DNA from: Euglena gracilis
Lineage: Eukaryota
Length of the DNA: 64,000 nucleotides
Reading direction: 5' to 3'
Assembly: GCA_039621445.1 (NCBI GenBank)
Contig: CP154954.1
Span: 25,618,954-25,682,953 of the forward strand
The notes under the pieces are model-generated. The model was not told the origin of the DNA, ran no database searches, and was given only the letters and a program-made list of their open reading frames with translations. A program made the translations under genes and the position numbers. Shown here one piece after another: positions 1,833 through 63,778 of the stretch. Every line of letters starts with the position of its first letter. Within the stretch, counting starts at the first letter, position 1.

Positions 1833-2288
1833 CAGGGGTTTTATTAAGCCGGAGGGGGTCCTATCCCCCCCGGGGGGGGGGGGGGGGGTCCAGTCAGCCA
1901 GCAGCTCAAATCCAGCCAGCAGCCCAAATTCGGGCTGGGAGCCCACCCCGGGGGTCGAGTGAAATAAAGTTTGGTCCAGCCCGGCCAGAGGCCGGGCCAG
2001 CTGGCCGCAGGCAGGCCAGCCAAATGGCCTGCCCAATTAGGCTGTTCCTCCAGTCCCGATCCAGCCTTGAATAGCTCCATCCATCAAAATGTCGAAAATG
2101 GCAAAAAAAAATTCAGAAATTTTTGTTTTTCAACGATCCAGCCCAGCCCAGCCCAGCCCCGGACCCCCCCCCCCCCCCCCCCCCCCCCCGGGGGGGGGGG
2201 TCCAGCCAGCAGCCCATTTCCAGCCAGCAGCCTTTTTGCCAGCCGGAGGCTGGATCCCCCCCCCCCGGGGTCCTTAAGAAAACCCCTG
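1833..2288. mobile_element. hAT-type MITE, family A (TIR CAGGGGTTTT(A/C)TTAAG)
   Basis: TIRs at both ends; perfect 8-bp TSD gccaagac at 1825-1832 and 2289-2296; related copies at 35077 and 40410. Confidence 0.92.
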
Positions 2289-6800: not shown

Positions 6801-9740
6801 GTGTCCCCCCACTCCTGGCCCGCAGGGGGGGGTCCCGACCACCCCCCCCTCCTCTCCTTATATCGAACCCTGACCCCAAGGCACTCCAAATCCGACCCCC
6901 GGGATGGGGGGGCGCACCGCCAAAAGTGCCCTAGCACAACACCGGGGAGCCAAAAATGGCCTATTTTCAAAGGAATGTGCCTGGTCACAGGCCGAAATGC
7001 GACTCCCCCGATTTTTTTCGACTTTTTTGACCTGAAAATGGCCGAAAACTGCCCAGTCAAAACAGGCCAAAATCGTGCAAAATAGCCAAAATGGGCCGAA
7101 AAATGGCCGTGGCTTGGGCGAGGTGGGGAGGGAGTGCGGGGAAATAAAAAAAAATGTGAAAATAGGGAAATTTAAGGGATTCAATTCAGGATTTTTCATT
7201 TCATTCCCCACCATTTTGTGAAATCTCAGAAAAATCTTTTTTTTTTTGACCCCAAAAACAGTCCAAAGGGCTCCAGAAAGGTGCCAAAAATGGCCGAAAA
7301 ATGGCCATAACTCGGGCTACACGAAGAGTCGGGGGGAAATTTAAGCATGGATTGGGCGTTCCAAGGGCTTCAATTTTGCTTTCTGTTTTGGGCCACAAAA
7401 GCGCGCCGGAACACGGGCCAGACGGTAAGGCAGCCGAAACGGTGAATGGTGTCGATAGAGGCACTCCAGGTGAACATTTCGTTAGACCAACATTTCCGGA
7501 CGTTTTCTCGAGATATTTTCGAAAAAATCGATTTTTTGACCGAAAATCACCTCGGTGAAATGGTCGGAAGGGGAGCGGGCCAATCCTACCCAGTTTGGGC
7601 CCCTTTGCGGCTGAATGACTCGGGCCTCGCAGGGAGCTGGGGGTCAAATGGAGGTGATTTGGAAACTAGAAATCCAGTCACTCGCGACTGGAAAAAAAGA
7701 ATAACAGGAATGGAGTCATGGTGATTATCCGCCGTTCCTGAGGTCGCCCCGACCTGGGGGGGGACGGGGGGTTCGACCCCCCCCCCCTTTGCCCAGGGGT
7801 AAGCTTCGCTCTTACCCATAAAGGGATAAGGGTTCTTAGACCCCACACTTAAGTGTGGGAGCTCCACTTTGTACCATGTGTGGGCCAACGACTACCCCAA
7901 TCGCTGCCTCCCACCCGACTTTGGAACTGAGAAACTCGGGGTTTCTGATGCAGTGCCTCCCAGGGGCTCTGTGTCAGCGTTGCACGTGTGTTCTGGTTGG
8001 AGTGCCCTCCCTCCTCGGTACCCGGGCGATCGTGTCTGCACATGTGGCTCGCCGGACACAGGGTGCGACCCCCTCCGGGGCCCCAACCCAGCCCTAACCT
8101 CCCCACCCATCTGCGCTGGCATGCCCTGCCAACCGCATGCCTCCCCCTGCAGTCCTCTTCAGTCTTCAGTGTGGTCTTCATCCTCAGAGATGAAGGAAGA
8201 CCGGCTTGGAAAGCACACATTTCTTCAAGGTTTGCAGATCCCGATTTGGTCCACCCCAGCCGCAACAGTACCCTCCCGGGGGAGGGGTTGCTGCTGACCC
8301 ATAAATCCAGCTCTTTGGGGGTCCAGCTGGACTTGTTTTGCAAAAGTGCAGGTCAAAAATCGCCATAAAAATGGTGTTCTGGGAGTTTTTGATGATGTCA
8401 CGTGCTTGATTAATTTTTTTGAAAACAATGTTTGGTGGCTGCTTTTTTGTACCATTCTGGCTTCTTTTGTACCATTCTGGCCCAGCAACCCCCCCCCCCG
8501 GGGCCTTGCGGACATGAATGGTGGGTACCCCTGCATCGCAGGACCGTGAGCCAACCATGTGCTCCGCCCTCCTCTCCCACCTCTCCTCGTCTGCTGGGCC
8601 TCGGCATTCCCCTCAATATATCTAAACCGAGGCGGCAAGTGTATAACCCCCTTATACCCAGGGCTGAACGAAACCCCAGAAGCCCATAGGTGGAGGGGAC
8701 AGACTATTGTTCAACGTGTATTGTGAAAAAGTGTAATATGTGTTTCAGCACAAAAATATTTGTGTATCAATTGTGTATCACCAGAAAACGAGTGTCACAT
8801 GTCACCGAAAAGGCATTGTTTATTCCATGGGTCCACAAAAATAATGCAAAGAAGAATAGTCACTGAAGTTGAACATGTTGAGAAATTTTTCTTCGGTGTG
8901 CTTCCCCAATTTGTGTTCCTACTTTTCCTCTAACGCAAACCTTCCATAGCCTTGATCACTTGATCAATTTGTGGCATGAGGGATTGTGTTCCTCCCCGGT
9001 CTGCCGCAACAGCAAGGCCAGATTCCCCCTTCCAACCCCTCCCAAAGAAAGGCCGCACAACCCCCCTCCCCCGATCCAATTGAACAGAAAAACAAAGTAA
9101 GGCCCTCACATTTGAAACCGTTTTCGATGTAAGTAAGGTGTGTCCCTCCCCTCCCTGCCCCATCGTGGTGGACCGACCGGACCGGACCCCCCCCCCTCCT
9201 GAATCGGAGGTGGGGTCCGGACTGACCCTGGGGGGGGGGGGGGCAAGGCACCCCCCAATATCAATTTTTTCTCTTCACACTGGCCGCCAAAAATTTTGGG
9301 CATGTGGCACATTTTTGCCCCAAAAAAGCTGACACGTTTGGCTGATCTTGGGGGGGGGGGGGATTTTCGGCTTGGTGATTTGCGCCAGGCTGAAATTTGG
9401 CCACCTGGACTGTGCCACTGAGGAGGCATGTATACCCAACCCTGAGTTGTCGAACATCCCTGCATTGATGTCTGGGGGGGGGCTCACCCCCCTTTTTTTA
9501 TCTGGGAGCACGGAGCCTTGTGTTGCAGCTTCCTTTTGTCCATGCGGCATTGCTGTTCTTCCCCCTGTCGACCTCCCTCTGCCCCAGTACGCGCCATTCA
9601 GCTCTGCCGATACTTCCGGTGGCAAAGCAAAGCGGCACGGTCGGGTTGGATTTTCCCGGCCCCCGTCATCTGCCGGTGACTGGGATTCCCCAAATCGTGT
9701 GGCATGGAGGGAGAAAACCGTGGTGCTGTCCTGGGAATGA
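3828..9740 (+). CDS. Putative multi-exon gene of unknown function, structure only partly resolved
   Basis: Exon-like GC-rich blocks at about 3830-4016, 4130-4238, 4508-4593, 4722-4800 and 9588-9740. Pyrimidine tract + CAG acceptors near 4129 and 9587; paired intron ends gccctcctc (about 4242) / gaggagggc (about 4494). Reading frames ambiguous. Confidence 0.3.
5522..5654. mobile_element. Small palindromic MITE flanked by TA
   Basis: cccccaaatataatcccc ... ggggtattatttgggggg inverted ends with TA on both sides. Confidence 0.55.
6180..7860. mobile_element. Second copy of the 560-1590 repeat, interrupted by nested MITEs (about 6422-6990)
   Basis: Similarity to 580-740 and 1100-1580; nested family D-like sequence starts caggctgtattttag at 6422. 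Confidence 0.65.
6497..6872. mobile_element. hAT-type MITE, family B (TIR CAGGGTTCG(G/A)TATAAGGAG)
   Basis: Perfect TSD accccaag at 6489-6496 and 6873-6880; near-identical copies at 15966 and about 55465. Confidence 0.93.
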
Positions 9741-10982: not shown

Positions 10983-11251
10983 CAGGCTGTTTTTTAAGGT
11001 GGTGCCGACCCCACTCCAGGGGTGCTTGGGCAGGTACTCCAAGGCACAAAAATCCGACCCACTTGGAGGGGGGTAGGGCACACGGCCAAAAGTGCCCTAG
11101 CACAACCCTGGCGCCGGGGAGCCCAAAATGGCCTATTTTCAAAGGAATGTGCCTGGGCACAGGCCGAAATCCAACCCCCGGGGGGGGGGGGGGGTAGTGC
11201 CTGCCTGGGCAGGCACTCCGGACCCCTCGGGGTTGGTAAAAAAACGGCCTG
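10983..11251. mobile_element. hAT-type MITE, family D (TIR CAGGC(T/C)GTTTTTT)
   Basis: Perfect TSD ttcggagg at 10975-10982 and 11252-11259. Confidence 0.92.
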
Positions 11252-11648: not shown

Positions 11649-24150
<12,502 letters not shown>

Positions 24151-24731: not shown

Positions 24732-27700
24732 ATGGACGCCCAGGCGGTGTACGGCCGTGGCCCCGCTGACCTCTGGTCTGTGGGGCACGGGGGCTCCATC
24801 CCCAGGGCCGGCATTCAAACCATGCGGTGGAGCTCCATTCGGGTGGTCTAATCCAGTCTGGATGTAATGCAGGCTTTCTTTCAGGGAAGATCGCACCCCA
24901 AAGGGGGGGGGGTGCTGCGGGGGCGGGGGGCGTTATCGACCCCCCAGGATTGGAAGGCTTGTGTGACAGCATAATCCCCAGCGCCGAGGGTGCTGGCAAA
25001 GCTCACCATTCTTAATGGAAAATGGGCTTGGTCGACGGGCACCGGGACCCAAAACCGACCCTCTGGTGGGGGAGGGGGGTGCCTGTTATGGGCAGCACCC
25101 CATTGCACTCCCACCCCCATTTCCTCCCGCCTTTTTTTCCGCAGGTCAAAATTTGCCGTCCGCGCCAAAAGACGTTCCCGGCACAGCTCCATCGTGAGTG
25201 AGGTTAGGGTTAGACCCGACCCCCCACCACCACACCCAGCATCCCGCCGCCAACGCCCAACTGCTGCGTCGCAGCCAACTCCGGGGGGGGGGGGGGGTCC
25301 CCGGGGCCACGCGGGCAGCGCGGTGCAGCAAGCGGTCCACCACCACATCACCGCCCGGTCCGCATTGGCCCTCGCGGAGGAGGAGGAGGGGGAGGAGGAG
25401 GGGCGCCCACCGCCGGGGGGAGAGCAGGCGGGCGAGCCGCCCCCCGGGCAGACGGCGTCCCTCCCTCCCTCCCCTCCCAACGCCCATCGTTGCCGTCAGG
25501 TCCGATGGTGGCCCACGGCCGTAGCTGTCAACACCACAACGCTGCTGCGGGGGACGGGGCCGAGTACATGAAGCATACATCTCTCTAAGGTTTTGCGAAC
25601 CCCCCGGGGGGGGGGCGGCTGCAGCCAGCCCCGATTTGGGCCCAGCCCAGCCGCAGCAGCCCCCGGGGGGTGCTGCTAGCCCTAGCTAGCCAGCCCCAGG
25701 GGGGTGGAAAATATGCACCGTGCAGTTTTTGCAGTTTTTTGCAGTTTTCACGTTTTGGGCTTTTTGCAGTTTTTTGCAGTTTTTTGCAGATTTTTTTCTG
25801 AAAAAACTGCACACGTTCAGTTTTTTGCAGTTTTTTTATTTGATCCAGTTTTTGAGGAAACCTAAGATGTTTATTTTTTGGTGCTTGTTGTTTTGGTGAC
25901 AAGTCCACAATTACTCCCCAACCAAAATTGCTTCCTCTGCAACCTTTGCATTGTAGGAGGTTTGAACAATGTTGAAGGGTGTGAGGGCCTCTTGATGTTC
26001 TTTGCTTTAATTGTATATAGATTTTTTGTTTGGGCCGAATGCCCCCCAACCATGGTTTTTTCCTGCGCAAGATTTTCCCAGCAGGACAAATCCTGGCTCG
26101 AATGCCTAACTGCCACCGCTTGCCTGACCGCCTCCGACCATGGTTTTTTCCTGTGCTGCATCTGGTAACCAGATACAGCACATGGACGTTGCTGGTGGAC
26201 GGCTCCAACAAAGCTTCAGCCAATCGTTTTTTTTTTGTCGGAATCTTATTTGTCCAAAATTCTGAATTATCAAAAGAACGTGTGATTGCAAGTCGTCACG
26301 GACGGTGCCAGCGTCATGACCGGGCTACAGGCAATGTTGCGGAAGTTGTTCATCCGCGACCTGTTGTTGTTGACCGGGGTGGACGACTGCCACCAACTCC
26401 AGCGTGCCGTTGTTCACGCAACGCGACACGAGTGCGTTATGGATCAACGCAGTGTTGCGGGCCTGGCCAGCCAGCAACACTGCGTTGCGCCACTGCCATC
26501 CATATGGTTCGCGGCGTTGTGAAGATGTTCCGTAAATCGGACCTTCTAAGCATGCGGCTTGCATCGTTGTCCGATGACGCAACACGCTCCCTAAAAACCA
26601 TCATCACTTCCCAGGTTCTGCATCCACTCGCTGGTGCGAATATCTGCATTCTGCCTTCTTGGCTGTTTATACTAATTACGGTCCTTTGACAAAAAAACAC
26701 CTGGGCAGGCACTCATAGGCACTCCGGACCCCCCCCCCGGGGTTGGTAAAAAAATAGCCTGATCTGGTTCACCTGCACTTTTGTGGTGAAACGAAGAAAA
26801 GGGGAGAAAGAAAAAGAACGTTGCAAAAACTAACCCTAACCCGAAATTTTTGTTCTTCAAGGAATGGGGTTCGGGTTAGGGTTAGGGTTCGGGTTGGGGT
26901 TAGGGTCACAGTTGACAATTATTTTTCTTAAAAAAAACAAAAAGAGCAAAAAACATGTTTTTTTTGTTTCCAAAAAAATCAAGCCGTCAACCTTGGTTAG
27001 GGTTAGGGTTAGGGTTAGGTTCGACACTGCCGTTTGGGGGTCGTGGTTTTGGGGGTGGAGGTCGTACAGCGAACAAGTACCCAAAAAAAGGTGCGTTGGG
27101 CAGAACAAGAAGATAGTGATGAGTTGTAGAAATGCATTTTGAAAACAACCCTTTTTGGCATTTTTTTTTAAAAAATAAGCATATTTTTGTTGCTTTTTTT
27201 TAAAAAAACAAATGTTTTTTAAAAAATGCCAGCATGGTGCCCATAATGGTGTTCATCGATTTCAAAGCTGTGCAAAGAAAAGTTAGGTGAATTGGGGCGT
27301 GCTCATTGGTGGCAGTTTACATTATTTTGCATATGCACACCAGCTTGTTTACTGTCATTTTTTAGTTGAAGTGCAGTTTTTTGCAGTTTTTTGCAGTTTT
27401 TTGCAGTTTTTTGCAGTTTTTTGCAGTGCAGTTTTTGACCGCCCCGTGTGCAGTTTCTCCACCCCCCTGCTAGCCTCTTTTTGGGGGTCCAGCCCAAAAT
27501 TTTTCGGCGCTTTGCGCAGAAATTTTTCGAAAAACTGTGCTCAAAAGTGGCCAAAAATGGGGTTTGGGGGGCGTTTGGGCCATTTTTGGGGGGTTTCAGA
27601 TGCATCATTTTTTCAAAACTGTGTTCTGTAGGACATTTTTGGGCATTTTTCCGATTTCAGTCCAGCTCGCCCCGGTTCGGGTCCAGCCGGGGTCCAGCCC

Positions 27701-30526
27701 CCCCCCCCGGGGGGGGGGGGGGCGGGCTAGCCAGCCCAAATTTCTAGCCCTAGCCCAGCAACCCCCCCCGGGGTCCTTAAAGAGATGTATGACATGAAGG
27801 CAAAGAAGGTTTGCCAGTGGCTTTTTTGGTAAGACCTTATTTTTCATCAGTTTGCGGGGTCAGTCACAGGGGTTTCGCAACTCGGCAACGTTTTTTTTTC
27901 GGAGGGTCAAAGATGTGAAATTTGCACCGTTCCCCCGGTGCCACCACTGGAAAAATGTGAAAATCTGAAGTGTCGCCCAAGTTGCTTGGGGAAAAATACA
28001 AACGGAAAATCACATCATCAAAAACAAAATCAAAAACAAACAAATTCAAATTCAAAAATCAAAGACAAACAAAACAAGAACAAAAATAAAATTAGACACC
28101 CGGGAGGGGGGGCATTGGGAGACCCGACTGGCGGTACCGCCGCCGCTGCGGCCGACGGGGACGACGACGCCAGCTTCCCCCAGGCCCCGGTGGCGGGGTT
28201 GGGGCCGGCCGGTTTAGGCCAACCCTGGGCACCGCTGCGGCTGCCCTCTCCCCTTCGCATGAGGTGAAGGTGAAGGTGAAGGGTGGGTGTGATCTACAAA
28301 AAAAAACAGTCTCTGGCCAAGAATTCGACCTGCAGCGCGTGACGTTGAAGAGCTGGTAGCATGACCCCTGGTTCTGGGCGGTCCTTTGGTGGTTAGAGGT
28401 TTGTGTGCCCCCACCTCAAACGCTGCTCCCGATATAACTCCCCCCGGGTGTGTGGCCCCCCTCCTCCTTCCATTCAAACTTGGCGCCCCTAAAGTTGGCC
28501 TTCGGCCTTTTGCACATTGCCGCCAAAGTCATTAACATGCAAACTTGACCCCCCCCCCCTAAGGTTGGCCCCTGGCTTTACCTTCAATCGTGGCCCAAGC
28601 CAAGCGCCCGGGGGGAGGGGTGACAATCAGTTTTCCATTCTTTCCTCCAACTCTTCAGAAATGAAAGCAATTTCCAGCTCATGGTTTCTTGATTCTGCGC
28701 CTGTTTGTGAGTAAATTCAGTGTTGCCGTCCATGCCCCCAAACCAGAGATCAGGTCGAAAATCGAAGTCGTAAACGAGTTAATTGTTTTTTCTCCGAAAG
28801 TGCCTCCACATAGACACCTGTGGGATCCTGGTATTCATTCATTAAAGAAAGGGTGGGCAGAACTGCACAATCTTGCTTTTTTTCAGAGTGACTGTTACTT
28901 TTTGGCTCAAACCCCTCCCCCTCCCCCAGGAAGGGAGGTTGTCAAAAGCCACCAAAGCAAAAGGCGCTGAAAGCGCCAGAAAGAATTCATTCCGGACATT
29001 TTCTTCCCATTTGTGCTAATTTCCCTTGGATTCCAGAGGGACCGATCGGGGGGTCCCGACTGGTTTTTAGAAAAGAGCGACCGGTTTTCGGAAGGGTGGA
29101 AGTGCCCCCCCTTCCTCCTCCAAGCGCCTCCCCGCAGGACCACGACTGGGTATACAATCACTCAGTCATTGGCCGACCCCCGGGGGGGGGGGGGGGTGAC
29201 TGGTTTGAAGAGTGGAGTGACCCCCCGGGGGTAAAAAAAAATTTGTATGGACCCGGGGCCTGCCCCATCAGCCACCACATCCTGTCGGAGGACGACGAGA
29301 CGTGTTCGTCCCTGTCCCAGGCGAGCCACGCCCGGCCACGGATGCGGCGCAGCACGCTGCTGACGTTCCGCGTCCGAGCGACGCCGCTGACCCCCAAGCG
29401 GCAGAGCGGCCCAGCCGCCCAGCCATTCAGCTACCGGATCGCCACCGTGGGCTCTCCCAGCAATTTCCCCCCCCAACCCTTTCTCTCCCTATTTGAACCT
29501 CCCAAGCAGGGGTTTTTTTAGTCTTGGACCCCCTCCCCTGGAGGGAGGGGGGGGGGGGGCAGGGTGGGTGGGTCCCATGGACCCCCTCCCCCCCAGTGGG
29601 CTGGTGAGTATATCTTTTTCGGCGCCAAAGGCACCGAAAATTTTGAAAACGGTGCTATTTTTAGCAGTTTTGGCCGTTTTCGGGCAAAAGTAGGTGGGTC
29701 CCCCGGGACCCCCCCCCCCCCCTCCCCCCGAGGGGCCCCACCCCAGGGGGTGGGCGGGTGGGTGCCAACCCCCTCCCCCCCCCAGTCTTAAAAAAACCCC
29801 TGCTCCCAAGTACCAATGCCAACATATGAAACAGCCCATTTGATGCCGATTTATCGACCAAATAACCCGTGAATTTGCATCTTGAAAACTCTTGATTTTG
29901 GTGGATTGGGGTCCGGTTTTTGAATTACGTGTGGCACACCGACCCTCCGTTTGTTGAGTTTAACAATTGTATGGTGATGAACACCTGGATGGATGGTGCA
30001 TTGTTCTGGGGTTTTTGGCATGTCGCCGAGTTGTGAAACCCCCGGGATTACCCTCCCCGAAGTGAAAAAAATTGACAAAAATATAAAAAACCCCGGAACC
30101 CTCTTTCCTGCGTAACAACTACCAGCACCAGGTGGTTTTCTGGAGGTGGGGTGGCAGGTCCACCCCTTCGCTTGCTTTCTGAAGCCCTGCACCACTTAGG
30201 CGGCGTAGCTCGCGCTTATGTGTGTGATCTGTGGGAATCAGGTCCAGGTGGGCCCATCCGCCAGCGTGGCATACGTTCCCGAGCCCAAAGCGTCCTCAAT
30301 GCTGCACAGCACCCACCTCAAGAGGGGTAGCCTCGGTTTCCCTGCCATGGATCATGTCAATCCCCCCGACCAGCCTGATTTGTCCTGCACGCTGTTGCCC
30401 TCCCCCTTTCCGCCATTCAGGCTGCCCTCAGCCCTGTGGCACAAGAAGACCTGCCAGAGCCGGAGTATTATATCTGAACCACCGACCGGTCTTCGCCCCT
30501 GCCAGTTTTCAATCCCGTGCCATTAA
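24732..30526 (+). CDS. Five-exon gene, about 225-aa low-complexity hypothetical protein (MDAQAVYGRGPADLCAVQQAVHHHITARSALALAEEEEGEEEG...)
   Basis: Exons 24732-24775, 25319-25445, 28136-28177, 29267-29446, 30242-30526 total 678 nt in frame with GC3-rich codons. Introns 1 and 4 are GT-AG; introns 2 and 3 are nonconventional (cagacgg/ccgactg; caggccccgg/ccggggcctg). Confidence 0.7.
26170..26690 (+). pseudogene. Frameshifted hAT-family transposase fragment
   Basis: Ordered motifs across frameshifts: WTLLVDGSNK (26183), ERVIA/VVTDGASVMTG (26298), DDCHQLQRAV (CxxH-equivalent), STRWCEYLHSAFLAVYTNYGPL (26626). Recognised from knowledge of hAT motifs, not from a search. Confidence 0.8.
26831..27021. 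repeat. Short interstitial TTAGGG-like tracts
   Basis: taaccctaaccc at 26831; degenerate (TTAGGG)n at about 26867-26905 and 26994-27020. Confidence 0.8.
29507..29802. mobile_element. hAT-type MITE, family C
   Basis: Perfect TSD ctcccaag at 29499-29506 and 29803-29810. Confidence 0.93.
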
Positions 30527-34772: not shown

Positions 34773-37700
34773 TCAGCCCAGGAGCGGGTACTGGCTCGGA
34801 GACCGGAACACGGGCCGCCGTGGCGCCGCCTCCTGGGCGTCGTGCTCCGCCGCCTCCGCCATGATCCGGGCCCGGATGGCGAGGCGCTCCATCTTGCGCA
34901 GCTCCTGCTGCTCCCGCCGGTCCTGGTCCCTCTGGAGCCCCCTGTGCCGCAATGACAGACGGCCGATGAGTGCAGTGACGAAATATGTCGACAGGGGTCC
35001 TGGAGGATGACAGCAAGACAATGGAAAACGATGTTCAGTAAGCAGTGCAAAGCAGATAGATACAAAGCAATGCAATCAGGGGCTTTCTTATGGACCCCAG
35101 GGCGTGGGAGGGTCCCGCAGGCCAGCTGAAAAAAGTTGCTGGCTGGACCCCCCCCCCCCAGGGGGGTTGTGGGGTCCAGCCGGCTGGGAGCTGGACCTGG
35201 CGGGTACCCAAAGAAGGCCCCCAAAGCCCGAATTTTTCAAATTTTCAAAATCTGGAGGTGAAGGCCTCAAAACCACCAAAAATGCCATTTTTTTGGCCAT
35301 TTTGACCTCTTTTCCCAAATTTTCAGCGCGAAGCCAATTTTTCCAATTTTTTTATGGTCCAAACTTCGGACCCCCCCCCCGGGGGGATCCGCAGCCCAGC
35401 TGGGAGGTGCAGGCAGGAAAAAAGGTGCTGGCTGGCTGGACCCTCCTGGGGGCAGGGTCCCCTTTGGCTTAAGAAAACCCCTGAATGCAGTATGTCACCA
35501 TATAAGACAATGCACTGCGTTGTGGTGAAATACAATGCAGTACATGCAGACCAATACAATGCAACACACGATGCGATGCGATGCAGTACAATGCAATACA
35601 ATACAAAAATATTTTTAACGGTGCGTATGTACGCCACGCAAGCTCACTGTCCCCCCTTTGTCGTTGACACGCCAAAATACAGCAAAAGTGCGGTTGACAC
35701 GGTGTGGTGTTGTGGACAAATTGTGTCAAGGAAAGGGGGGAGGTTCCCATAGGGGAGGGGATCGACAGGAAACAGCCCAAACAAAAAACTTCTTCTTAAA
35801 ATTGTTCCCGGTCCTTAAGGAAATAAAAAGAAAAAAACTCCGCTATCCCAGCACACTCAATGAAAAATATACAGGAAAATGGGCAAAGATATTTGTCATT
35901 TTTCAAGTTTTCGACGAGAACAGGTCGACATCAGGAAAAATATTGATTCCTGGCATCCTTGGACCATCACCCATGCACCCAAATAATCAAAAATGTGTTT
36001 TTCGACTCTTTAATTTTTGACCCCGTTCAAGTCCCAGTCCAGCCTTTGGTCGGCCCTTTGGTCGGAAGGGGGAGCGGTCCTTAAAGAAATAAAACAAAAA
36101 CTGCCTGTCCCTTGAGGACCGCCCTGTTCCTCGTTCAAATCCCCAATTTTGGAGAGCTTGAAAACTTTGCAAACGAACCGAAACATTAACTCACTGGAAC
36201 ACAATTTGAAAGACCTGGCATTTTTGTCGGTCCGAAATTGTGCAAACCAATATGACCCATGCCCAACCTCCGCTCAACTTGGTATCATTTGCCCACGGAT
36301 GGCACACCTGACGTTTGGCCCCACGTCCTTCCACACGCCCAGCTGGAGCAGGTGGGGGCTCTCCTGCAAGTACTGGTCCTTGATGGGCTTCAGCACCCGG
36401 GAGCGGATGGTGGTGCCGGGGGGCTTCGGGCGCTTCTTGCTCTTCCGGTCAGGCTTTTGCTTAAGGACCCCCGGGGGGGGGGGGGTACTGGCTAGCCAAT
36501 CGGCTAGACACTGGAAAAAGTGGACTAGCTAGACCCCCCCCCCTGCCCCCGAGGGGGGGCGGGCCGTGGTCCGGGGGTCCCCCGGACTGGGAAAAAAATT
36601 TTCCTCCGGCGCTGCGCGCCGGAGGAAAAATGAGGTTTTTAATAGGTTTTTGGCTGATTTTGTTCCAAAAATTTCCAAAAATGGCCAAAAACGGGCATTT
36701 TTGGCCATTTTTGGGGGTCCCAAAAAAAATTTTCGGCGCTTCGCGCCGGTCACTGGAAAAAATTTTTCCACTAGCTAGCCCTGCTAGCAGACCCCCCCCC
36801 CGGGGGGGGGGGTCTGCTAGAAAACCCACTAGCCAAATTTGGACTAGCTGCAGTCCAGCCCCCCCCCCCCGGGGGGGGGACTGCAATCCCTTAAGCAAAT
36901 GCCTGCTTCCGGTACCTGTAGACGCCTGCGGGGGCCGTGGCGGCGTCGTGTATGCGGAAGGGCTGCAACCATGCGAGGACCGCGAAAAGAGCCAGCTGAC
37001 GACGCTACTCATCAGCTTCACAAAGAGAGTGACAATGCTTCGAACAACACGGTGGCGGAATATGTCTGCGCTTAAAAATTAGAACCCCAAGTCAAGACAC
37101 GCTGTTGTGGCATCCATGACAATCCAGTCAAGACGCTTTCCAACGTCATGGACCTCTCTGTGTCCTGTAGAAATTGCACTCCCAGCATTGAGGAATCACA
37201 AGCCCACAGAAGCGTTGGGTGAGTGCGTACTCTCGGGGATGTCGGGTAGCCCCTGCAGGCGACGGAGGCGGGCTTCGAGGTTGGGCTTCACCACGTAGTC
37301 CACGTTGTGCGCCTTCTTGTCCTCCATCTTAGCCACCGCCGTCATGTGGACGATGTCCCCGATGGCCTGAGAGGTCGAGGCTGGTTCGTGGTCAGCAGAT
37401 AACACAACGTCCCACGCCATCTGCACCAACTGGCCAAAATTCATTTCATTTCACGAAGAATTCAAAGACAGGGGTGCCTTGCACATTTCCTTTCGCCTGC
37501 AAAGAACAATAGTGGAGGGATCATTCACCTTGTCACCTGGTGCCGAGTCGGGACAAACAAGCTGGAGTATTGCCTCCAAAAAAGGGTGGAAGGTGCACCA
37601 GCGACTCTGTTTCGTTGTGGGCGCGGATGCGGTTGCTCTTCAGGAACGTGCGGCCGTACTTGGGCCAGTACACAGGACTGTCGCAGGCCACCCAGACTGT

Positions 37701-40700
37701 CTTTGGCGTGATGCGCGAGATCTTGCATACCGTCCCTGCGCACCGACAGAGAACGTGGTATGGACCAGGATTCGACATAAAGACAGGTGGGGGTTGAACC
37801 CCCTTCACACCCCACCACCTCCAGCTAAATGCCGTACAACCTCCTTGCATCGAAACCTGGTGTGGACCGCCTGCCAAGGCCCAACATGTTCCCTCTCAGC
37901 CAGGTGGAATTCCACCAATCTGGGGGCAGTAGAGAGCCCTGGGATGTGGCAGGCACCCCCTCCCAGGGGGGTCTTGCCTGGTCGTGCAGAGAAATCGCAA
38001 AAAAGAGCCCGTTTTTCGGCACCGGAGTGCTTGGTCTGAAGACAAGTTGGGCCATGTCCCTGGTAAAGATCTGCCCCCCCCACCCCCGGGTGGGTCGGGT
38101 GCCTTAAAATTCAGCCTGCTCTCGGTGGTTGTCGTCTGAAGGCCTGAAGGGGCGTGTCCCATAGAAGAAGAGGGGGTGAGGGGAGGACGACACCGATCTT
38201 CTCGAAGCCGCTGCTGCCCTTCGGCAGCACCAGGCTGAACTCCTTCTTCGCCTGAAACTCCTGGATGCCGCCCCTGAGCGGACGGGTGCCCCCTGCCCCA
38301 GGAAGCTGTGACCCGACAGGCCGCTCAATTCACTGGGTACCTGACATTTCCCAGGTGTGGCATTTGAGGTGGGGATCAGGGGTATTTTGAGACTGGGGGA
38401 CCCACTCACTCTCCCCAAAAATGGCCAAAAATCGCGAAAATGCCAAAAATGGCACCTTTTTCAAAAAAAAATTGGCGCCGAAAAGTATATCCCCCCCTGT
38501 GGGGAACGGGGGGGGGGGTCGGCCGGACCCACCCGGTGGGGATGTAGACCCAGGTCGAACAGGATGATGGGTTGGTGCGTCACGGTATGGGTGATTCTGA
38601 CAGACCCAATCCATCAAAAAGGTAAATGTTGCTGATTTGGTCGGCAGTATTTCGAATGTCGGGTGAAACGTTCTGGAAATAAGGATGTGTACCTTCCTTT
38701 CTATTATGTAAATGTTGTGATCTTATCTTTTTACAGTCCCAAATGTGGCTCCCTTCCAGGCAATTACCTTTGGTGTTACCAGGGGAAGGGGGGTCATTTT
38801 GCACTTTTAAAATCTAATCCATGAGAAGCCAGGTGGCCACTTCTATTTTTTTGTCCACGACGACTTTGGGGAATGGAAAACCTTCACCCAGAAAAAATCA
38901 AAGTAAATTCCACCAGCGCTTTGCACCAGGGACACATGTGGAAAAATCCCACCTAAACTGAACCTCAAATTTCATTTCGATCCTCACAGACTGGTTTTTT
39001 ACAACCCAGGGGGGGGGCTTGCGTATGGGGTGCTGACAATAGCATACCCCCTGGGGGGGGGGTTGGGCCCGGCCCCGGCCGATCCAGGCAACTTGAAAAT
39101 GGCCCTATTCGAGTCCCAAGGCTCCGTGGGGGGGGGGGTGCATTTTCACAACTCCTGCAAAATCTAAACAACTGAAAAATCCTTTTTTGCTTTCACCTCT
39201 TCCACCAGGAGATGTGGACCAATGAAAAAATCCATGGTGCACCAGTTTGGGAGGTTGAGAGATGCAGATTGATAGCAGGTGCTTTCAGAGTGTCAACGTG
39301 ACCGAGTGGTGTGTGCACCGGTTCAGGGCTCACAACCAGACAGCTGGGAAGGGCTCTGAGAGCCAGGGTTAGAAGACATGCAGAGGGACCTTTTTCAGAT
39401 AAAAATTAGGGGGTGCATCGACATTTCATGGATATTACAACAGTTGAAACATTTGTGCAGTTGCGCAAAGGAGTTGCCAAGTCCAGCACGCTGCTTCTGC
39501 TTAAGGGTTCACATTACCCCCCCCCCGGAGGGGGCTGGGCTGCAGCTGGTCTGGCCGGGGGGGGGGGTCTGCTAGCAGGGCTAGCTAGTGGAATTTTTTT
39601 CCAGTGACCGTCGTGACACGTCGAATTTTTTTGAACCCCAAAACTGGCCAAAAAAACCATTTTTGGCCTTCTGGTTTTTTTGAAGAAAATCAGCCTTAAA
39701 AACCCCATCAAAAATCTCACTTCCGTTTTTTTCCATGATTTTTTCCCAGTCAGCGGGACCCCGGACCCCCCCTCTCCGGGAAGATGGGGTCCAGCTAGTC
39801 CATTTTTTCCAGTGTCTATCAAAATGCTAGCCAATGGACCATCCCGGGGGTGTCCAATTTTAACCCCCAAAAATGTGTGTTGAGATTGAGCAATGCCCCC
39901 CCCCCCCATTCTCACTGTCCGTTTTGTCAGCAGGATCTGCTGCGGAGACTATGATGGGGATGATGGCGTTCAGGCAAACTCGGTGAGCAATAATTAAAAA
40001 AAACCATCCCCCTTGCTTGAACCGAAGTATGGAATAATACATTAAGTGAAGACTTTTTTTTAGTATCCCGCAAACCATGAAAAATGAAGAACGGAATTTA
40101 TTTTGAATCTGATTTACGCAATTACGCAAGTGATTGAAATTTTAACTTGTTTGCACAAATGCGCAAAGATATTTTTAGCTTTTGTTTCTGCGATTGTGCA
40201 ATTGATTCAGTTCATTTATCCTCATCAACACATTTTACTGAAGCAATATTTCTCCTGTCAGGTACATGCATGATCAGCTGCCAATTATCACATTCTCCCT
40301 GTCAGCCTTTTTAACTCCAGTCCTCTCCAGCAGAAAAGTGTACATTTCTGATATCATTTTTCCCGCAAAGTTTCCGCAATTACCCCGCAATTTTTCAAGG
40401 CCTCTGATACAGGGGATTTCTTAAGGACCCCTCCCGGGGGGTCCAGCCTCCGGCTGGCTGCTGCCTGGAAATGAGCTGCTGGCTACCCCCCCCCCCCCAG
40501 GGGGATAGGGGGGAGGGGGGAGGGTCCAGGAATGGAGGGGGCTGGGCTGGGCTGGGTCGATGAAAAACAAATTTTATAAAACATTTTTGCCTTCTCGACA
40601 TTTTGATGGAAGGAGATAGATCAAGGCTGGGGGGCTGTGATGTAGAAAGCTGTGATGAGAAAAAAATGCAGGGATAGGTGACCTGGGCAGTCCAGTTGGC

Positions 40701-43700
40701 TGGCCAGCCTGCAGCCGGCTGGCCTGGCCTCTGGCCGGGCTGCGGGTTGGACCCAACTTTATTTCACTCGACCCCGGGGGGGGCTCCCAGCCCAGATTTG
40801 GGCTGCTGGCTGGATTTGAACTGCTGACTGGCTGGACCCCCCCCCCGGGGGATGAGGTCCCCTCTGGCTTAAGAAATCCCTTGTTCTGATATCAAATTTC
40901 CCCCCTGTTTTAAATCCTGTTGCGCATGCTCCATCCAGTTGTGAAACTGGAGTGACATTTCGAAATCTCACAGCTGAACAAAAAATAGCCATCACATCCC
41001 TTTCGTCGGATTCCAGTTTGCGCCGTACGGGAACACCGGGTGCAAACACAAGTGAATGAAGGGCAAACATCCGAAACACACTCTGAAAAGGGGCTGAACA
41101 GAGGCATTTTTAACCAATTCAAAAAGGCTTAGATCCTCAGCCATTGGAGTGAATCAGTTGGGTCTGTTGTAAAACACTAGAATACAATATACTCTGTTGC
41201 AAATTTGCCAATAGGCGACGAAAGGGTGGCAGAACTCCGAACACCCCCGAACCCGCCATTTCGGTCCTGAAAAGACTGGCCATTGTGGCAGCAGTTGTTA
41301 CCAGGTGCATACTCTTCGGAGGTGTGAACTTGTCGATCAGCTCCCAGGTGGCAGATTGCGCAAGACCACACAGTTGACAGGGTGAACCTTTGGAACTATC
41401 CAATGATGTTTTTGTGATTTGAACTGGAACGTTTGAATTCGATAGTTATGGGCTATTTTTGGGGGGAGTTTTGAGACGTTTTTTCATTCAAAAAACAAGG
41501 CTCAAAAACAGCTTCAAAAGGCCATAAAATCGGAATCGCCTTAGATTGCGCAATTGCGCAAGGCGAGTCCAGTTTTATGAGCTAAGTGCGAAGTAGCCCA
41601 GTTGGTGAGTTGGTGGCAGGCAGGATGGGAGAGTTACGGGGTTTTCGCCGGTTTGAAACGGTCCGAGTGCCCCTCAGAGTCGGTCCGTGCCACCCACCCA
41701 CCCACCCACCACCAATTTTGAGATCCTGTTCAGAGTGAAAATGAAAGCACTTATATTTATTGTATTGCATATGCTTAATCATGATGTAACAAATCGAAAT
41801 GCACAAACAATCGTGGCCATCACAGATCACGTCAGGCAACAATCCAGAATGACAGCATACACCAAGGTCTTGCTGATTGTGCCCTTCTTGCCTTTCAGTA
41901 GGCGGCTGAGGGGCATGTGCCGCGCCTGGCGCGACATTGCAAAACGGCCCTGCGGCGGACGGGCCACGGTGGGATTAGGATCAAGCTGAACGGTCCCCAA
42001 CTCCTTTGTCATCGTTGTTGTGATTGGCTGTTTGGCCAAGGGTCCTGACCTCCTTCCTCCTACGGGGCTGTTGATTACCCCCCCCCCAAAAGCGGAATAC
42101 CCAGACTGTGCAAAAACGTGCCCTCTCAATGCAGCTCATTGCGAATATTTGCATCAGTGCCTTTGCAAAAAAGAATTCAGGGTGCCTTCAAAAAAAAACA
42201 GTGAAGAAAATTGTACAAAATGGTTTAGTCGCTCGGTCACTCAGTTTAAGATAAAGATTGCAAAAATAGAAAATAGAAAGTAGAAAATAGAAAACAGCAG
42301 CAGAAAGGAAGGAGAAAATATATCCCAGAGAAGAAGGCATCTTCTCCAAAAAATCTTCCAAAGGCATCTTCCAAAAAATAGAAGCATCATCAACACTGAT
42401 CTGTTTCTAGACCTTCTCCCCGACCAAGGGTATTAAATGAGCAGGGGAAGGGGGCGGCCCGAAGGGGGGGGGGGGTCGCGACCCCCCCTCCCCCCTGTAC
42501 AAAACCAGCACTCACGTAACACCCCGTCCCACTTCAAACCGGCAAAAAGTGGCACGCCTCACCCCCGCCCACCCTGGCCTCTCTCGTCACCGTGCGCCAC
42601 CCACTTCCTTCTGTTTTGGGCACTTAAAGCAACCCAAAATGAACCCTACCTGGGTGGGAGAGTCTAAAGACAAATACAAAAATGCCCACTAGGAAAGTTT
42701 GCATGCATGATGCATGAATGCATCACATATGTATTATATTTATATGTGTTGCATGCACATGCATGTACATACATACGCTTGCATGTGTATGCACACGTGC
42801 ATATGCATACATGCATACATACATACATACATACATACATACATACATACATACATACATACATACATACATACATACATACATACATACATACATACAT
42901 ACATACATACATACATACATACATACGTACGTACGTACGTACGTACGTACGTACGTACGTACGTACATACATACACACATACCTCCCCCCCTTCCCAGGC
43001 GCTTTGCCCGGGCCATTATTGAAGGTAAGGCCAGGGGGCCAACCTTAGGGGGCCAAGTTTGCACGTAAGGAGGGGGGGCCGAGCGCCCGGGTGGGGGCAA
43101 GTGCCAAAGGGCGGTATGTATGTATGTACGCATGCATGCATGCATACCTGCATCTATTTATGCAACAACATAATTGATGAATTTTTTCAGGTATTATATA
43201 TAAATATCTGTGATTAATGCATCGACATGACAAGCACAAAACAAAGCATTGTATTTGAAGTACAAAAATACACAAAGACGCAGGTTGGGGAGAAGGTAAA
43301 GAGGCCAGCAAACCAAAGACAGATCAAATTTCAAATGGAACATGGAGAAAACACAAGCTGAGGAAGGAAATACCGGACAAAAAATCCGTACAATATAGCA
43401 TAGCCTGACCCCCGTAGAACTTTTCTTTTTTAAAAAGAATGGTTCTGACTCTGAGCACAGCTCAAATGGCAGAATGTCAAAAATCTCGGTTTCATGTTGC
43501 AAAACCCCTACGAGTTCTTCGGATGGTGGGCCATCGCCCCGGTTGTGGGATTGGGTGCACGGTTGCGGTTACAGCTAAAAATAACAAATAAAAGGTAAAT
43601 TTTATGAATCAAATAATAATACACCGAGAAATAAATCAGTGCAAAAAAAATGGACCAAAACCATCTCTTCTCAGTGCCGGGGTGAGCCAGCACAGTTTGG

Positions 43701-46018: not shown

Positions 46019-48400
46019 TGATGTGGGATGAGGACAGCCTCGCTGGCACTATCCCATGCCACCGGGAACTGAAGGTACTCAAAAATAGACACAAGGAACA
46101 GCAGTATGAACGACACACCTTGTCGAAACAACAGGGTGCAAATGAAAAATGCCATGTGGCACCCCGGAAACGTATGTTTGACATGGGGAGGGGGTCGGTG
46201 TTAATTCAACGGTACCGGACAATTTCAAAATATAGGCTCCCACTCAAGCCTAGCTTGCAGGTTGTTTTCAATCTGTGAATCGTTTTCAAAAAAAGGTCTT
46301 GAATGAGCCAACCGTGCGAACGTTTATATCTGTATATCTATCCCCAGACAAAATTTCCATTTAACCACGCATCTCCGGCACAAAGGGACAACAATACAAT
46401 CAAAAAGCATTGATGCCTGGAACTAGAAACAGCAACTGCGGGAAGAGCAAAGGGGAATAATCTGGCAACAAAAGTTGCGATTACGATCTAAGTGCATCAT
46501 TTTGTGCGGAATGACGCTTTTCGAGCTGGATACAAAATTTCCAACCGCTTGAAACTGCGATTCTCCTCAGAGAGTGTTGGGAATTGTGCATTTGAACGTT
46601 TATTTGGTTAGACTAGAGTCTTGAACTTTGCTCCAAAGAGCCAACAACCCAGAAGAGGTTAAACTTCGCTCAACGTCATGGTGCCAATGCTTAATGCATT
46701 ACGGTATGAGGGCAACTCTTTCGACACAGATAATTTGCTGGAGATTGCTTAAAATTCTTCTGAAACATTTGGCAAAACATTCTCAAAAACTTGGACTCTA
46801 CCAGACAATGTTTCAAGTGCCGTAGAAATTGCAAGTCACATGTATTGTGTGGAATTTGTTGTGAGGTAGCACCTGGTTTGTTCCAGGTACGACAGACTGT
46901 CACGAATTTTGCCGTTTTGTTACTCACTGCTGCAGGAAAATTGCTCAACAACAAAATTTTGATGCAACGCATGTGCTATTTACCGGTTCCTCTGTCCTCA
47001 TGAGGCTACTGCAGAATTTTTGCATTTGCTATAAAAAAAATAATCCCAGAGTCTTTTTATATTTGGGTAAGTATGTGGTTCAAGGGCTTATTAAAGAGGC
47101 TGCCCCCTCCCATCACATTTGTGTCTTTCTTGGTGCTATTTGTGCTAATTACTGTCCCTGGCAAGATCCTGGCGATGAATGGATTTCGGAGAAAAGACAC
47201 TGTGTGCGTCCATTGGCAAACCAGTCAAATACCCCTGGTCCAATGAACCACAAAATTGCCTCTACCAGCACACACAGATGTATGCCACATATGTCTCATG
47301 CGTTAAATCCTGTCGAAGGTAGTCCACCAGAATTTCCCCAGCCAAATTGGACTAGCTGCAGTCCAGCCACCTTCCCCAGGAGGGTTATGCGAACCCTTAA
47401 GCAAGCCTGCCCAAGACAGAAAAAAAAACCACTTTGAAATGACCAAACGAGGTTGCCAAAAATGGACCAGTCCGACAAGCTGCTTGAGGTTGCCCAGATC
47501 CATGCATCCAGGCCAACTCACAGGCGGAAACTGGAAGCAGGCTGCACTCTTTCCTAACCAGGAGAGGGAACGTGAAAGGAGGTTGTTACCCTGGGTCCCA
47601 AATGTATGTGAATCTTACGTCGGCGCTTTTGGTTTTCATCATATTCATCTGAAAAAAATCGAATTTTTCCCCTGGAAAAGCAGGCATTCCTATGATCACC
47701 ATTTTCCCACCTTTTTCAGCTTCTTTCTGGTGAACTTGCTCCATATGAGAATGAAGACAAATAACAAAAATATTTTGTTGGTGTGTTGGTTGGGGGGGGG
47801 GCTTTGCTCGCATTTTTCGAGCATCCTGCACGCTGCAGATGGGTTAGTTGCAATGAGTAACGCCATGGATAATGATTCCTGCCGGGCCTGGAGGGGGTTG
47901 TGTTAAAAGTGGGTTTAGGAATTAGGTATGGATTCATTGTTTGAAAAAACATGGTCTATCGTATTGTTTCTGTTTCTTTTTCCTTGAAAAATTTTTTTTT
48001 CTGACTCCTTTTCCACCTCTGATTTTTATACCACCTCTAACAATTTTCCATCATTTCCACAATTCCTATTTTTTTTGATTTTCTCCCTGGACACACAAAT
48101 TTGCAAAACCCTTTTCAAAAATCGCACGTGCACGCACATACGCACACACGTGCATACGTGGAAAAACAACAAAAACCATTTTCAACTGTTTCTGACCAAG
48201 AACTGATAACTGCATTGGTGCGGATGTTTAGATCCTCAAGACAGAAAGGGGGGGGAATGGTGGAAAGGCTTCACCGGTCTAGTGGTGTCGTGTCCAGCAA
48301 ACAGGAGGCGGAAAGTGGGCAAAGCGGCGGATTGCGCATGGCCATGGCAGCGGCAGTCGGCCGGGGCTCTTGCTGTCAGCCCCCGTCTTGCAGAGGGGCA

Positions 48401-51400
48401 TCAACGGGCTGGCTTCACCGGGCTGCCGGCGGGCCCTGGCACACTTGTGGGCAGGACAAAAATGGTCACTGCAACCATGCCTAAGCAGTACGTAGGCACG
48501 CGCTGGTTGGTAAACGTCCAGAACCCAAAAGGCTGCTGCAGTTCCCCGCCCGGCATGGACCACACACGTGGAGCTGCACCGCCGTGCCGGGTCCGGCTGG
48601 GGTAGCGGACTTGCGACTCCGACCGGCCTCCCCAGCCGAGATCGGTGGCAGACCCCTGCAAGCGCCTGCCATTGGACGGAGTGCTGGAATCTGCGCTGTT
48701 GTTTGTGGATCACACGGCATTGGACAATACACCTGTAACAGCCAACACCTTGGGTGATGAAAGACAGAGACAGAGAGGCAGACACATCCATCCATCAATC
48801 AATCCATCCATCCATCCATCCATCCATCCATCCATCCATCCATCCATCCATCCATCCATCCATCCCTCCATCCATCCATCCATCCATCCACCCACGCCCA
48901 CCCACCATCCATCCACCCACGCCCACCCACCCACCCACCCACCCACCCACCCTCCCTCCCTCCCTCTCCCTCCCTCCCTCCCTCCCTCCCTCCCTCCCTC
49001 CCTCCCTCCCTCCCTCCCTCCCTCCCTCCATCCATCCATCCATCCACCCACGCCTACCCACCATCCATCCACCCACGCCCACCCACCCATCCACCCACCC
49101 ACCCACCCTCCCTCCCTCCCTCCCTCCCTCCATCCATCCATCCATCCATCATACACAAACCTTCTGCAATCCCCGGTTTATCAGCAAACACCCAAAATAA
49201 GAGGCTGCAGGTTGATATTTGGGGGGGGGGGGGTATTATTCTGCCATTTTTTGTCAAAATCAAATATTGTCCAAAACAAATGACACTCTTTATTCAGTTC
49301 TTTGGGTTTATTATATGCTGGATGTTCCTGGTGTGCGCAAACCCAGCCTCATTGATCATGTGCGTTTGAACTCATCTGATTTTCTCTTGTCTTCGTTCCT
49401 TCGTCTTTGTTGTGGACTGTGGGAGTGTTCATAATTTGGGCAGCTGGAATCAGCCCTTTGGGGTTTATTTTATCTGGGGTTAAGCATTGGAGGAGGTTGC
49501 GTGATCCCTTCACACACACCACACACCACACACCACACACCACACACCACACACCACACACAACCACCTCACGTCCGATTTGACAGCATTCTCAGCATTG
49601 CTGTGTGTACACCATTGGTGACCATGAGCCCAACCACCCAACAAATCAATGTGACACCCGGCATTGCCGCAGAGGACTGGTGGCCTTCGCCTGCGAGGGA
49701 GCCTTGGGACCCGCTGCGTACCAGCGGGCCGAAGTTGTGCACTGAGCTGGGAGCAGGCTTGGGGGCAACTCTCTGGGGCTGAGGGGCAAATCGTGGGACG
49801 TTGGAGGATGTTTGGGGAAATCCTCCGCTTTCCCCCCTCCTTCTCGCCCCGGTAAGGCCTTACGGAAATGATCCTTTCTGTTCGAATTGTGCATACTGGA
49901 CCACCTGTACACATTGGCGATGGATGATCAACATAAAAAAAAACAGTAAACAAAAAGAACATCACAAAAACTATGGTTGGAACCTGTTCCGATTCTTTTC
50001 TCAAAAAAAGCGCACACGTTAACTGCGTTCAACATGGCGGGAAGGCCCTGCCCACCGCAAACTTAGGGTGACTTGTGCTCAAGTCTGGCCCTGGGAGGGA
50101 CTGCGAGCCATACTTGACCGACCGGGGCCACCACTGACCGGACTGCGTTGCCAGGGCGGAGTGAGGGGATGTTGCCTGACCTAGCACTAGCACTTGGCTC
50201 GGCCACCGACAAACTGCGCTGTCTTGCAATAACAAAGCCAGAATAACACCCGCCTCACCCTCAACGTGGCATTGGGAATACACAACGATGATGTGGAAAA
50301 GCAGACACGGCCTTGTCACACATCAAAAATCGCTGCACAGTCACAGGATGTGGTGTAGGAGCTGCCAAAGCAGAAATTGTTGTTGCCGGTCGCAGATTGC
50401 TCATAAAATTTTGACATCGTGTTGGTTTGTGATCATCCTTGATTTCTGTGGCATAAATTGCTGGGGCATCAATCCTGTGCATTCACCAGACTGTGTCTAT
50501 GACTTCTGGGGGATAAAGAATGCAAATAGAGTTGAGTTGGACGAAGCAACTTCGGAAGACAAGGCAAATAATTGGAGGCTTTTGTTCGTTCCTCCCTGGG
50601 TGTGCGGATGCGGCCGGAGGCGGGCAATCACATGAGTCTGCGCCGTCCACCGGCACCCCTGTCGGCTGGGGCTGGTCCATCGTGAAATGGAGCGACCCCT
50701 CGCTGCAACGGCGGGCGGTAGCTTCAAAAACCTAAGTTCAAAAAAAAGGGAAAAAAGAAAAAGGAAAGAAAAACAACAATGAACTGAAACCTCTGGGATT
50801 CCTTTTACAATTGTGTAAAAGTGAATTAATCACAGGAAAGCAGGGAAGCCATTGGCTCCACAGTTCGCAATGGTGACAGTGTCTGATGGTCTTAAGCAGC
50901 CTGTCCGCCTTGGGCCGGTGTTCAGCAAAGAGACACACCGCCCCTCCCCTGTTTGCCCAAACAGGGTGAGTCGAGGATCGTGCAGGCTGACCCAACTACC
51001 TCCCCCCCCCCGGGGTATTGACCTGGGTCAAATTGGGCCCAACAGAGGAGGAGGTCAACTTCGGGGGGTCACGTTGGGCGCAGGGGGGGGGGGTTCACTT
51101 TCCCCATCACATGCCACGTAACTGGATGAATTCTCGTGACACCCTATCACCATCGGAATGTTTTCCTACAGAAATACCGTCTTCGTCCGACAAAGTAAGG
51201 AAGGTATCCAGCTAACAACAAAAAGTGCACTCAGCCACACCCCTTGCAGCAAATAAACCCGCCCCCCCCCTTATAGAAGCGCGGGGCTGCTGCAAGCGCA
51301 GGGTCCAAATAACAGCGCACCCCCCATTTTGATGGGATTTCAAAAGGAGATGAACAAAAATCGGGCAGGGAGGGTCCAAATAGAAGCGCACCCCCTGCCA

Positions 51401-57499: not shown

Positions 57500-63778
<6,279 letters not shown>

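Follow-up and report, generated by a model that had tools for sequence, protein, structure and literature searches.

Coincidence of a nonconventional intron with a short inverted-repeat element and its target-site duplication in a Ribosomal_S17-domain gene of Euglena gracilis

We analysed a 64,000-nucleotide stretch of Euglena gracilis DNA, which is most likely nuclear and is called the window below (contig CP154954.1 of assembly GCA_039621445.1, forward-strand positions 25,618,954 to 25,682,953). A first-pass annotation had proposed that one intron in it is exactly a transposable element. On the minus strand, a gene for a Ribosomal_S17-domain protein contains a 456-bp MITE (miniature inverted-repeat transposable element). 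Intron 5 of this gene corresponds to the element plus one copy of its 8-bp target-site duplication (TSD). Very probably, the MITE inserted into an exon, and the element and one TSD copy are removed as a nonconventional intron, by which the frame is restored. The annotated conclusion, that the MITE and its duplication are the intron and leave by the nonconventional pathway, is well supported. The further labels of the annotation (a hAT-type element, a gain caught in the act, an introner family) are tentative. The locus is a clean sequence-level case in which one intron equals one element with terminal inverted repeats (TIRs) plus its insertion scar, and the other five introns of the gene are ordinary.

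The element was characterized by a repeat search and by TIR and TSD scans. The order on the minus strand was exon, TSD (ACCGGAAG), element, TSD (ACCGGAAG), exon (Table 1). The two TSD copies formed a perfect 8-nt direct repeat (D17), and the ends of the element formed a 17-nt inverted repeat (I18) with 94% complementarity (16/17). The length of 456 bp, the TIR of 16/17 and the flanking TSD of 8/8 identified the element as a MITE, and they agreed with the element and the perfect duplication annotated before. The TIR motif had two exact matches in the window and three with at most two mismatches, compared to an expectation of 0.03 (100 shuffles). A metagenome scan with the 17-nt motif gave 117 loci with one match each, and none of the 117 contained the element. 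BLAST of the element against these loci gave a lone 30-nt match, in L040. The 117 motif matches are due to chance.

The host gene was identified with a 44-aa piece of the downstream exon as the query. It matched one protein, P0001 (eukprot:EG_transcript_22412), and was 100% identical to it. From the name alone, we take "EG" to mean Euglena gracilis. P0001 is a transcript-derived protein of 250 aa with the Pfam domain Ribosomal_S17 (E 9.6e-10), and the gene product is probably an organellar ribosomal protein. Pfam searches with short exon pieces gave no family in 4/4 cases. Seven minus-strand exons matched P0001 at 100% identity over all 250 aa, and the joined coding sequence of 753 nt translated exactly to P0001. 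Across the junction of intron 5, the protein ran uninterrupted (...PESVYRYRKSKKRPKPPG...), which was the join with one TSD copy that had been predicted. This meant that the element and one TSD copy, 464 nt, were absent from EG_transcript_22412. If the element were retained, the protein would end at residue 154 of 250. Reading through from the upstream exon gave VYRYRKQAFA and a stop, that is, four element codons and then TAA, and the early stop described before was thus found. The peptides annotated on both sides of the element were correct as in-frame exons, but the "G" of "GVYRYR" was intronic, because the upstream exon spans just 17 nt and directly follows a GT-AG intron. This micro-exon, exon 5, lies between conventional intron 4 and nonconventional intron 5. 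It arose when the element inserted at a point 17 nt downstream from an acceptor site that was already there, and exons 5 and 6 are the two parts of one 154-nt exon. The orthologues P0002 (66% identity) and P0003 (40%) aligned without gaps across the junction. Therefore, the element splits a stretch of coding sequence that is conserved and continuous and that was a single exon before the insertion.

To place the intron boundaries, every donor and acceptor offset within 10 nt was checked against P0001, which gave 441 combinations. Introns 1, 2, 3, 4 and 6 each had exactly one GT..AG placement. For intron 5, nine of the 441 combinations reproduced P0001. All nine lay inside the TSD and all were 464 nt long (456 + 8), and the eight alternative placements led to an identical mRNA. 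GT/GC-AG or AT-AC boundaries were present in 0/9 compatible placements. This confirmed that there is no GT-AG pair anywhere in the TSD, and a U12-type AT-AC intron was ruled out by the same result.

Intron 5 was compared with the splicing signature 5'-N3CDG-/-CH'GN5-6, followed by an exon that begins with R, which was defined by E. gracilis knock-ins (Nomura et al. 2025, PMC12501133; this study, PMC11170887, PMC11282704 and PMC4770533 are cited from excerpts of their texts). In that assay, which used an EgGSL2 exon, the 3-nt donor spacer was intolerant of any change in length, and pairing beside the CAG/CTG motif was required for splicing. Wholly synthetic 50-bp introns that followed the code were spliced. 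Intron 5 fitted the code exactly, with AAG-CAG...CTG-ACCGG, an A at the start of the next exon and 11/12 paired positions next to the motif, in line with the pathway that the annotation had named. The predicted RNA fold of intron 5 closed on the TIR stem, with a minimum free energy of -284.8 kcal/mol (z -11.2, 100 shuffles). The spacers of 3 nt and 5 nt add up to the length of the 8-bp TSD. Therefore, the cuts dictated by the code remove the element and one TSD copy and restore the original codons. The annotation had made the same cuts, and the 753-nt model that follows from them was the one that translated to P0001.

These observations can be arranged in a course of events. A short non-autonomous DNA transposon with CAGG...CCTG termini would have inserted into the 154-nt exon of the Ribosomal_S17 gene, and the insertion would have duplicated 8 bp of the target. 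In the pre-mRNA, the 17-nt TIRs would pair and bring both ends of the element together. The machinery of nonconventional introns would measure from the stem closed by CAG and CTG, and the cuts would fall 3 nt upstream of CAG and 5 nt downstream of CTG. The element and one TSD copy would leave, and the pre-insertion frame would be exactly restored. This very locus was presumably the template of EG_transcript_22412. Nonconventional introns are excised as full-length circular RNA, and later than conventional introns (review PMC11282704).

The first-pass annotation had also placed the same family at three other sites where it forms no intron. Relatives were found there, at 16424-16757 (73% over 345 nt), at 39490-39833 inside intron 1 (72% over 324 nt) and at 47340-47409 (80% over 75 nt). 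They were one-ended, and a search for the partner TIR found a recognisable second end in 0/3. The window was then covered by three scans for similar elements. Scan 1 used exact 9-nt seeds and counted the lengths of direct repeats flanking 870 inverted-repeat pairs. The number of cases dropped to 2, 1 and 2 for lengths of 5, 6 and 7 nt and went up again, to 6, at 8 nt. Scan 2 was tolerant of mismatches (at least 12/14 TIR matches, any termini) and gave 1128 candidates. Six of them had an 8-nt flank repeat, five being elements and one a palindrome artefact. The analytic expectation was 0.02, shifted flanks averaged 0.46 with a maximum of 4, and three shuffles gave 0. Scan 3 was directed at TIR pairs ending in CA...TG. 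It gave 10 cases with an 8/8 TSD, one of which was a microsatellite artefact. The nine elements that remained had perfect 8-bp TSDs, each duplication was different, and 8/9 ended in CAGG...CCTG. Together with three older elements (TSD 7/8 or 6/8), 12 elements covered 6466 nt, approximately 10% of the window. With exactly 456 bp each, the element at 1833-2288 and the exon-borne element were equal in length, but they could be aligned at one end only (68% over 132 nt).

These elements bear on whether a transposase was involved at all. Double-strand-break repair with filler DNA might have made both the intron and the 8-nt repeat, as PMC4770533 proposes for the recently gained gapC intron of Euglena agilis, which has an 8-nt direct repeat. 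We consider this highly improbable here, since 64 kb contained nine elements with TIRs and with different repeats of exactly 8 bp, eight of which share CAGG...CCTG. A fixed repeat length beside conserved inverted termini is the product of staggered transposase cuts. The gapC case, intron 4 of E. agilis strain ACOI 323, resembles intron 5 in that it is nonconventional, has eight-nucleotide direct repeats at its junctions and occurs in one strain only. It differs in its attribution to break repair, and the excerpted text of PMC4770533 names no repeat family. Unlike in gapC intron 4, the 8-nt repeat of intron 5 flanks TIRs of a superfamily, and eight further copies with 8-bp TSDs are nearby.

Several results weigh against insertion of a MITE followed by its removal from the RNA. 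Splicing at the locus is documented by one assembled transcript, seen as a protein, and an empty allele or a paralogue with an identical coding sequence could have yielded that transcript. The window contains a single intact copy of the exon-borne family, and its relatives are one-ended and 72-80% identical. Therefore, we infer the mobility of this family from its superfamily. In scan 2, the shifted-flank control reached 4 at one offset, which means that the enrichment is real and less extreme than the analytic figure. Pfam searches with seven open reading frames (ORFs) of the 2218-bp element found a transposase family in 0/7; there were two sub-threshold, irrelevant matches, both in one ORF.

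An allele or paralogue without the insertion could be the source of the transcript, and the window would then contain a disrupted, unspliced null allele. The single transcript-derived protein is compatible with this. Nevertheless, no element of the code is missing from the insert, and this code was enough to have introns spliced in E. gracilis, synthetic ones included (PMC12501133). In addition, all 250 residues of P0001 match the locus in the window. We regard an empty allele as very improbable. The age of the insertion was considered separately. Intron 5 might be an old nonconventional intron in which selection for splicing preserved the TIR and the TSD stayed perfect by chance over eight free positions. 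Within the window, the closest relatives of the element are decayed, and TIR pairing is required for splicing (PMC12501133), so that TIR conservation does not date the insertion. However, the 3 + 5 letters of the spacers have no known sequence constraint, and 8/8 are equal to their exonic twins. In addition, two sister elements in introns of the host gene are already at a TSD of 7/8. An old intron is the less likely possibility, although it carries more weight than the other two alternatives above. The footprints of the insertion are intact. Since the window contains no near-identical sibling copy, its age was judged by these footprints only.

We returned to the nine elements to see how they fit the splicing code. 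The full code was present in 14/18 orientations, where we ourselves set the limit for pairing at 10/12 or more. This suggested that elements in non-coding DNA are already splice-competent, as judged from their sequence. The 2218-bp element at 25574-27791 fails the CAG/CTG code; it may belong to a different family or be a composite. In-silico excision of the nine elements was followed by an ORF-spanning test, in which the true case was not ranked first; the exons here are short. Position 6 of the TSD, which becomes the first base of the intron and of the next exon, was a purine in 16/18 orientations. It suggests a palindromic target preference, with a pyrimidine at position 3 and a purine at position 6. 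Such a purine preference would automatically supply the downstream-exon purine that the splicing code requires. The consensus of E. gracilis nonconventional introns is CCAGG at +3..+7 and CCTG at -9..-6 (Gao et al. 2024, PMC11170887). With a 3-nt spacer, it corresponds to CAGG...CCTG, the terminal letters of 8/9 elements in the window. In PMC11170887, the 16,151 nonconventional introns listed for E. gracilis account for approximately 57% of the catalogued introns, and in E. agilis their share is 71.8% (PMC12501133).

A wider explanation may be considered for these features. The 3-nt and 5-nt spacers might exist because their sum is the 8-bp TSD of one superfamily of CAGG...CCTG MITEs, and the splicing machinery would act as an RNA-level "undo" of insertion. 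As parts of the same explanation, the downstream-exon purine would reflect the target-site preference of the transposon, and most nonconventional introns would descend from the CAGG...CCTG superfamily. We hold these three statements jointly and tentatively, with a chance slightly below even. The locus accounts simply for the odd spacers, whose joint effect is the removal of exactly one 8-bp duplication. A reason why Euglena tolerates so many of these elements in its genome (12 in this window) is suggested as well. The relation 3 + 5 = 8 makes the origin of nonconventional introns directly testable, and the transposase to look for should produce TSDs of 8 bp and act on CAGG termini.

The best guess for the transposase superfamily of the elements is hAT-like, a label to which only two features led, a TSD of 8 bp and an end in CAG. 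hAT elements make 8-bp TSDs, and the consensus of their TIR termini is of the YARNG type. The exon-borne element begins with CAGGC (4/5 positions of this consensus). The other eight elements comprised six with CAGGG (5/5), one with CAGGC and one with CATAC. The element could instead be spliced as described and have been mobilised by a Merlin-type or another transposase that makes 8-bp TSDs. The CAGGG start resembles hAT termini, and CA...TG belongs to the inverted repeat and not to the direct repeat, both of which argue against Merlin. Two Merlin families with 8-bp TSDs, F1 and F2, are documented in E. gracilis (PMC8101967), and no literature report of hAT in Euglena was found, with subscription journals covered incompletely. 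All Merlin TIRs begin with GG (PMC8101967). In contrast, 9/9 elements in the window begin with CA, and the Merlin assignment was set aside. A mobilising transposase outside hAT is rather unlikely. F1 and F2 resemble the exon-borne element as E. gracilis DNA transposons with 8-bp TSDs (PMC8101967). They differ in TIRs that start with GG instead of CAGG, and no ORF with DDE_Tnp_IS1595 was associated with the elements in the window.

The maize element Ds, a non-autonomous hAT element, reportedly behaves as an intron, a finding attributed to Giroux and colleagues in 1994. Like the exon-borne element, Ds is said to transpose non-autonomously by cut and paste, to make a TSD of 8 bp and to be removed at the RNA level. 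It is said to use cryptic spliceosomal sites and to be removed imprecisely, whereas the removal of intron 5 is exact by the code. Introners of Micromonas, dinoflagellates and others are similar in that an exon receives a short element with TIRs and a TSD, and the RNA loses the element and the equivalent of one TSD, with the frame restored (PMC11282704). In introners, GT/AG sites are supplied or co-opted and the spliceosome is used (PMC11282704). In contrast, none of the placements of intron 5 has GT-AG, and the intron agrees with the euglenid code, which is measured from structure. An introner family consists of numerous similar copies that are entire introns of unrelated genes; the exon-borne family occurs as an intron once in the window, where only one gene has transcript support. 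Like intron 5, the euglenid nonconventional introns described in PMC12501133 lack GT-AG and have CAG at +4..+6 paired with CTG at -8..-6. They also share the 3-nt donor spacer, the 5-nt acceptor spacer, the downstream-exon purine and the extended pairing. There is no difference in kind, and intron 5 can also be delimited as an entire TIR element together with its TSD. According to the excerpted text, PMC12501133 excluded "slidable" introns, the type to which intron 5 belongs, from motif finding.

An origin of nonconventional introns from MITEs was proposed in 2013 (PMC3935182) and repeated in 2016 (PMC4770533). A 2024 review draws it with the labels "TIR" and "TSD" (PMC11282704), and workers on diplonemids echo the idea (PMC12621601). 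The 2025 study of the splicing code calls the origin of these introns "unclear" in its excerpted text (PMC12501133). Since the idea has been in print since 2013, the locus is a clear new example and not a new idea. In a literature search of article texts, with subscription journals covered incompletely, no paper was found that names the element family or links 3 + 5 to the 8-bp TSD.

Table 1. Coordinates of the host gene, the exon-borne element and further elements (window positions)
Feature	Position	Strand	Description	Basis
Host gene, coding part	34773..41937	-	7 exons, Ribosomal_S17-domain protein	P0001 match, splice-offset test
Exon 1	41937-41861	-	77 nt
Intron 1	41860-38274	-	GT-AG	single GT..AG placement
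Exon 2	38273-38194	-	80 nt
Intron 2	38193-37736	-	GT-AG	single GT..AG placement
Exon 3	37735-37599	-	137 nt
Intron 3	37598-37367	-	GT-AG	single GT..AG placement
Exon 4	37366-37231	-	136 nt
Intron 4	37230-36926	-	GT-AG	single GT..AG placement
Exon 5	36925-36909	-	micro-exon, 17 nt
Intron 5	36445..36908	-	nonconventional, 464 nt, AAG-CAG...CTG-ACCGG, next exon starts A	published code, offset test
Exon 6	36444-36308	-	137 nt
Intron 6	36307-34942	-	GT-AG	single GT..AG placement
Exon 7	34941-34773	-	169 nt
MITE	36450..36905	-	456-bp non-autonomous TIR element, ends CAGGC...GCCTG, 58% GC	repeat search, TIR/TSD scans
TSD, upstream copy	36906..36913	-	ACCGGAAG on minus strand	direct repeat D17, 100%
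TIR	36889..36905	-	17 nt	inverted repeat I18, 16/17 complementary
TIR	36450..36466	-	17 nt	inverted repeat I18
TSD, downstream copy	36442..36449	-	ACCGGAAG	direct repeat D17
TIR element	1833-2288		TSD 8/8	scan 3
TIR element	6497-6872		TSD 8/8	scan 3
TIR element	10983-11251		TSD 8/8	scan 3
TIR element	15966-16372		TSD 8/8	scan 3
TIR element	21667-21918		TSD 8/8	scan 3
TIR element	25574-27791		2218 bp, CATAC...GTATG termini, TSD 8/8	scan 3
TIR element	29507-29802		TSD 8/8	scan 3
TIR element	59790-60068		TSD 8/8	scan 3
MITE in conventional intron 1	40410..40883	undefined	same superfamily, TSD 7/8, CAGGGG...CCCTTG
MITE in conventional intron 6	35077..35483	undefined	same superfamily, TSD 7/8, CAGGGG...CCCCTG

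A composition scan of stop-free frames gave no convincing candidate for further genes in the window. Palindromes of a C run followed by a G run (C10G10 type) were present at 36468-36484, 36792-36812, 36859-36884 and many other places. Such palindromes, CTAGCTAG and A/T-run modules recurred both within elements and throughout the window, and they account for many long P/G-rich stop-free frames that are not genes. Long microsatellites were observed at 18331-18422 ((TATT)23), 23531-23787 ((TG)114), 42806-42982 ((CATA)44), 48785-49150 ((CATC)91, degenerate) and 62738-62969 ((ACAG)58).

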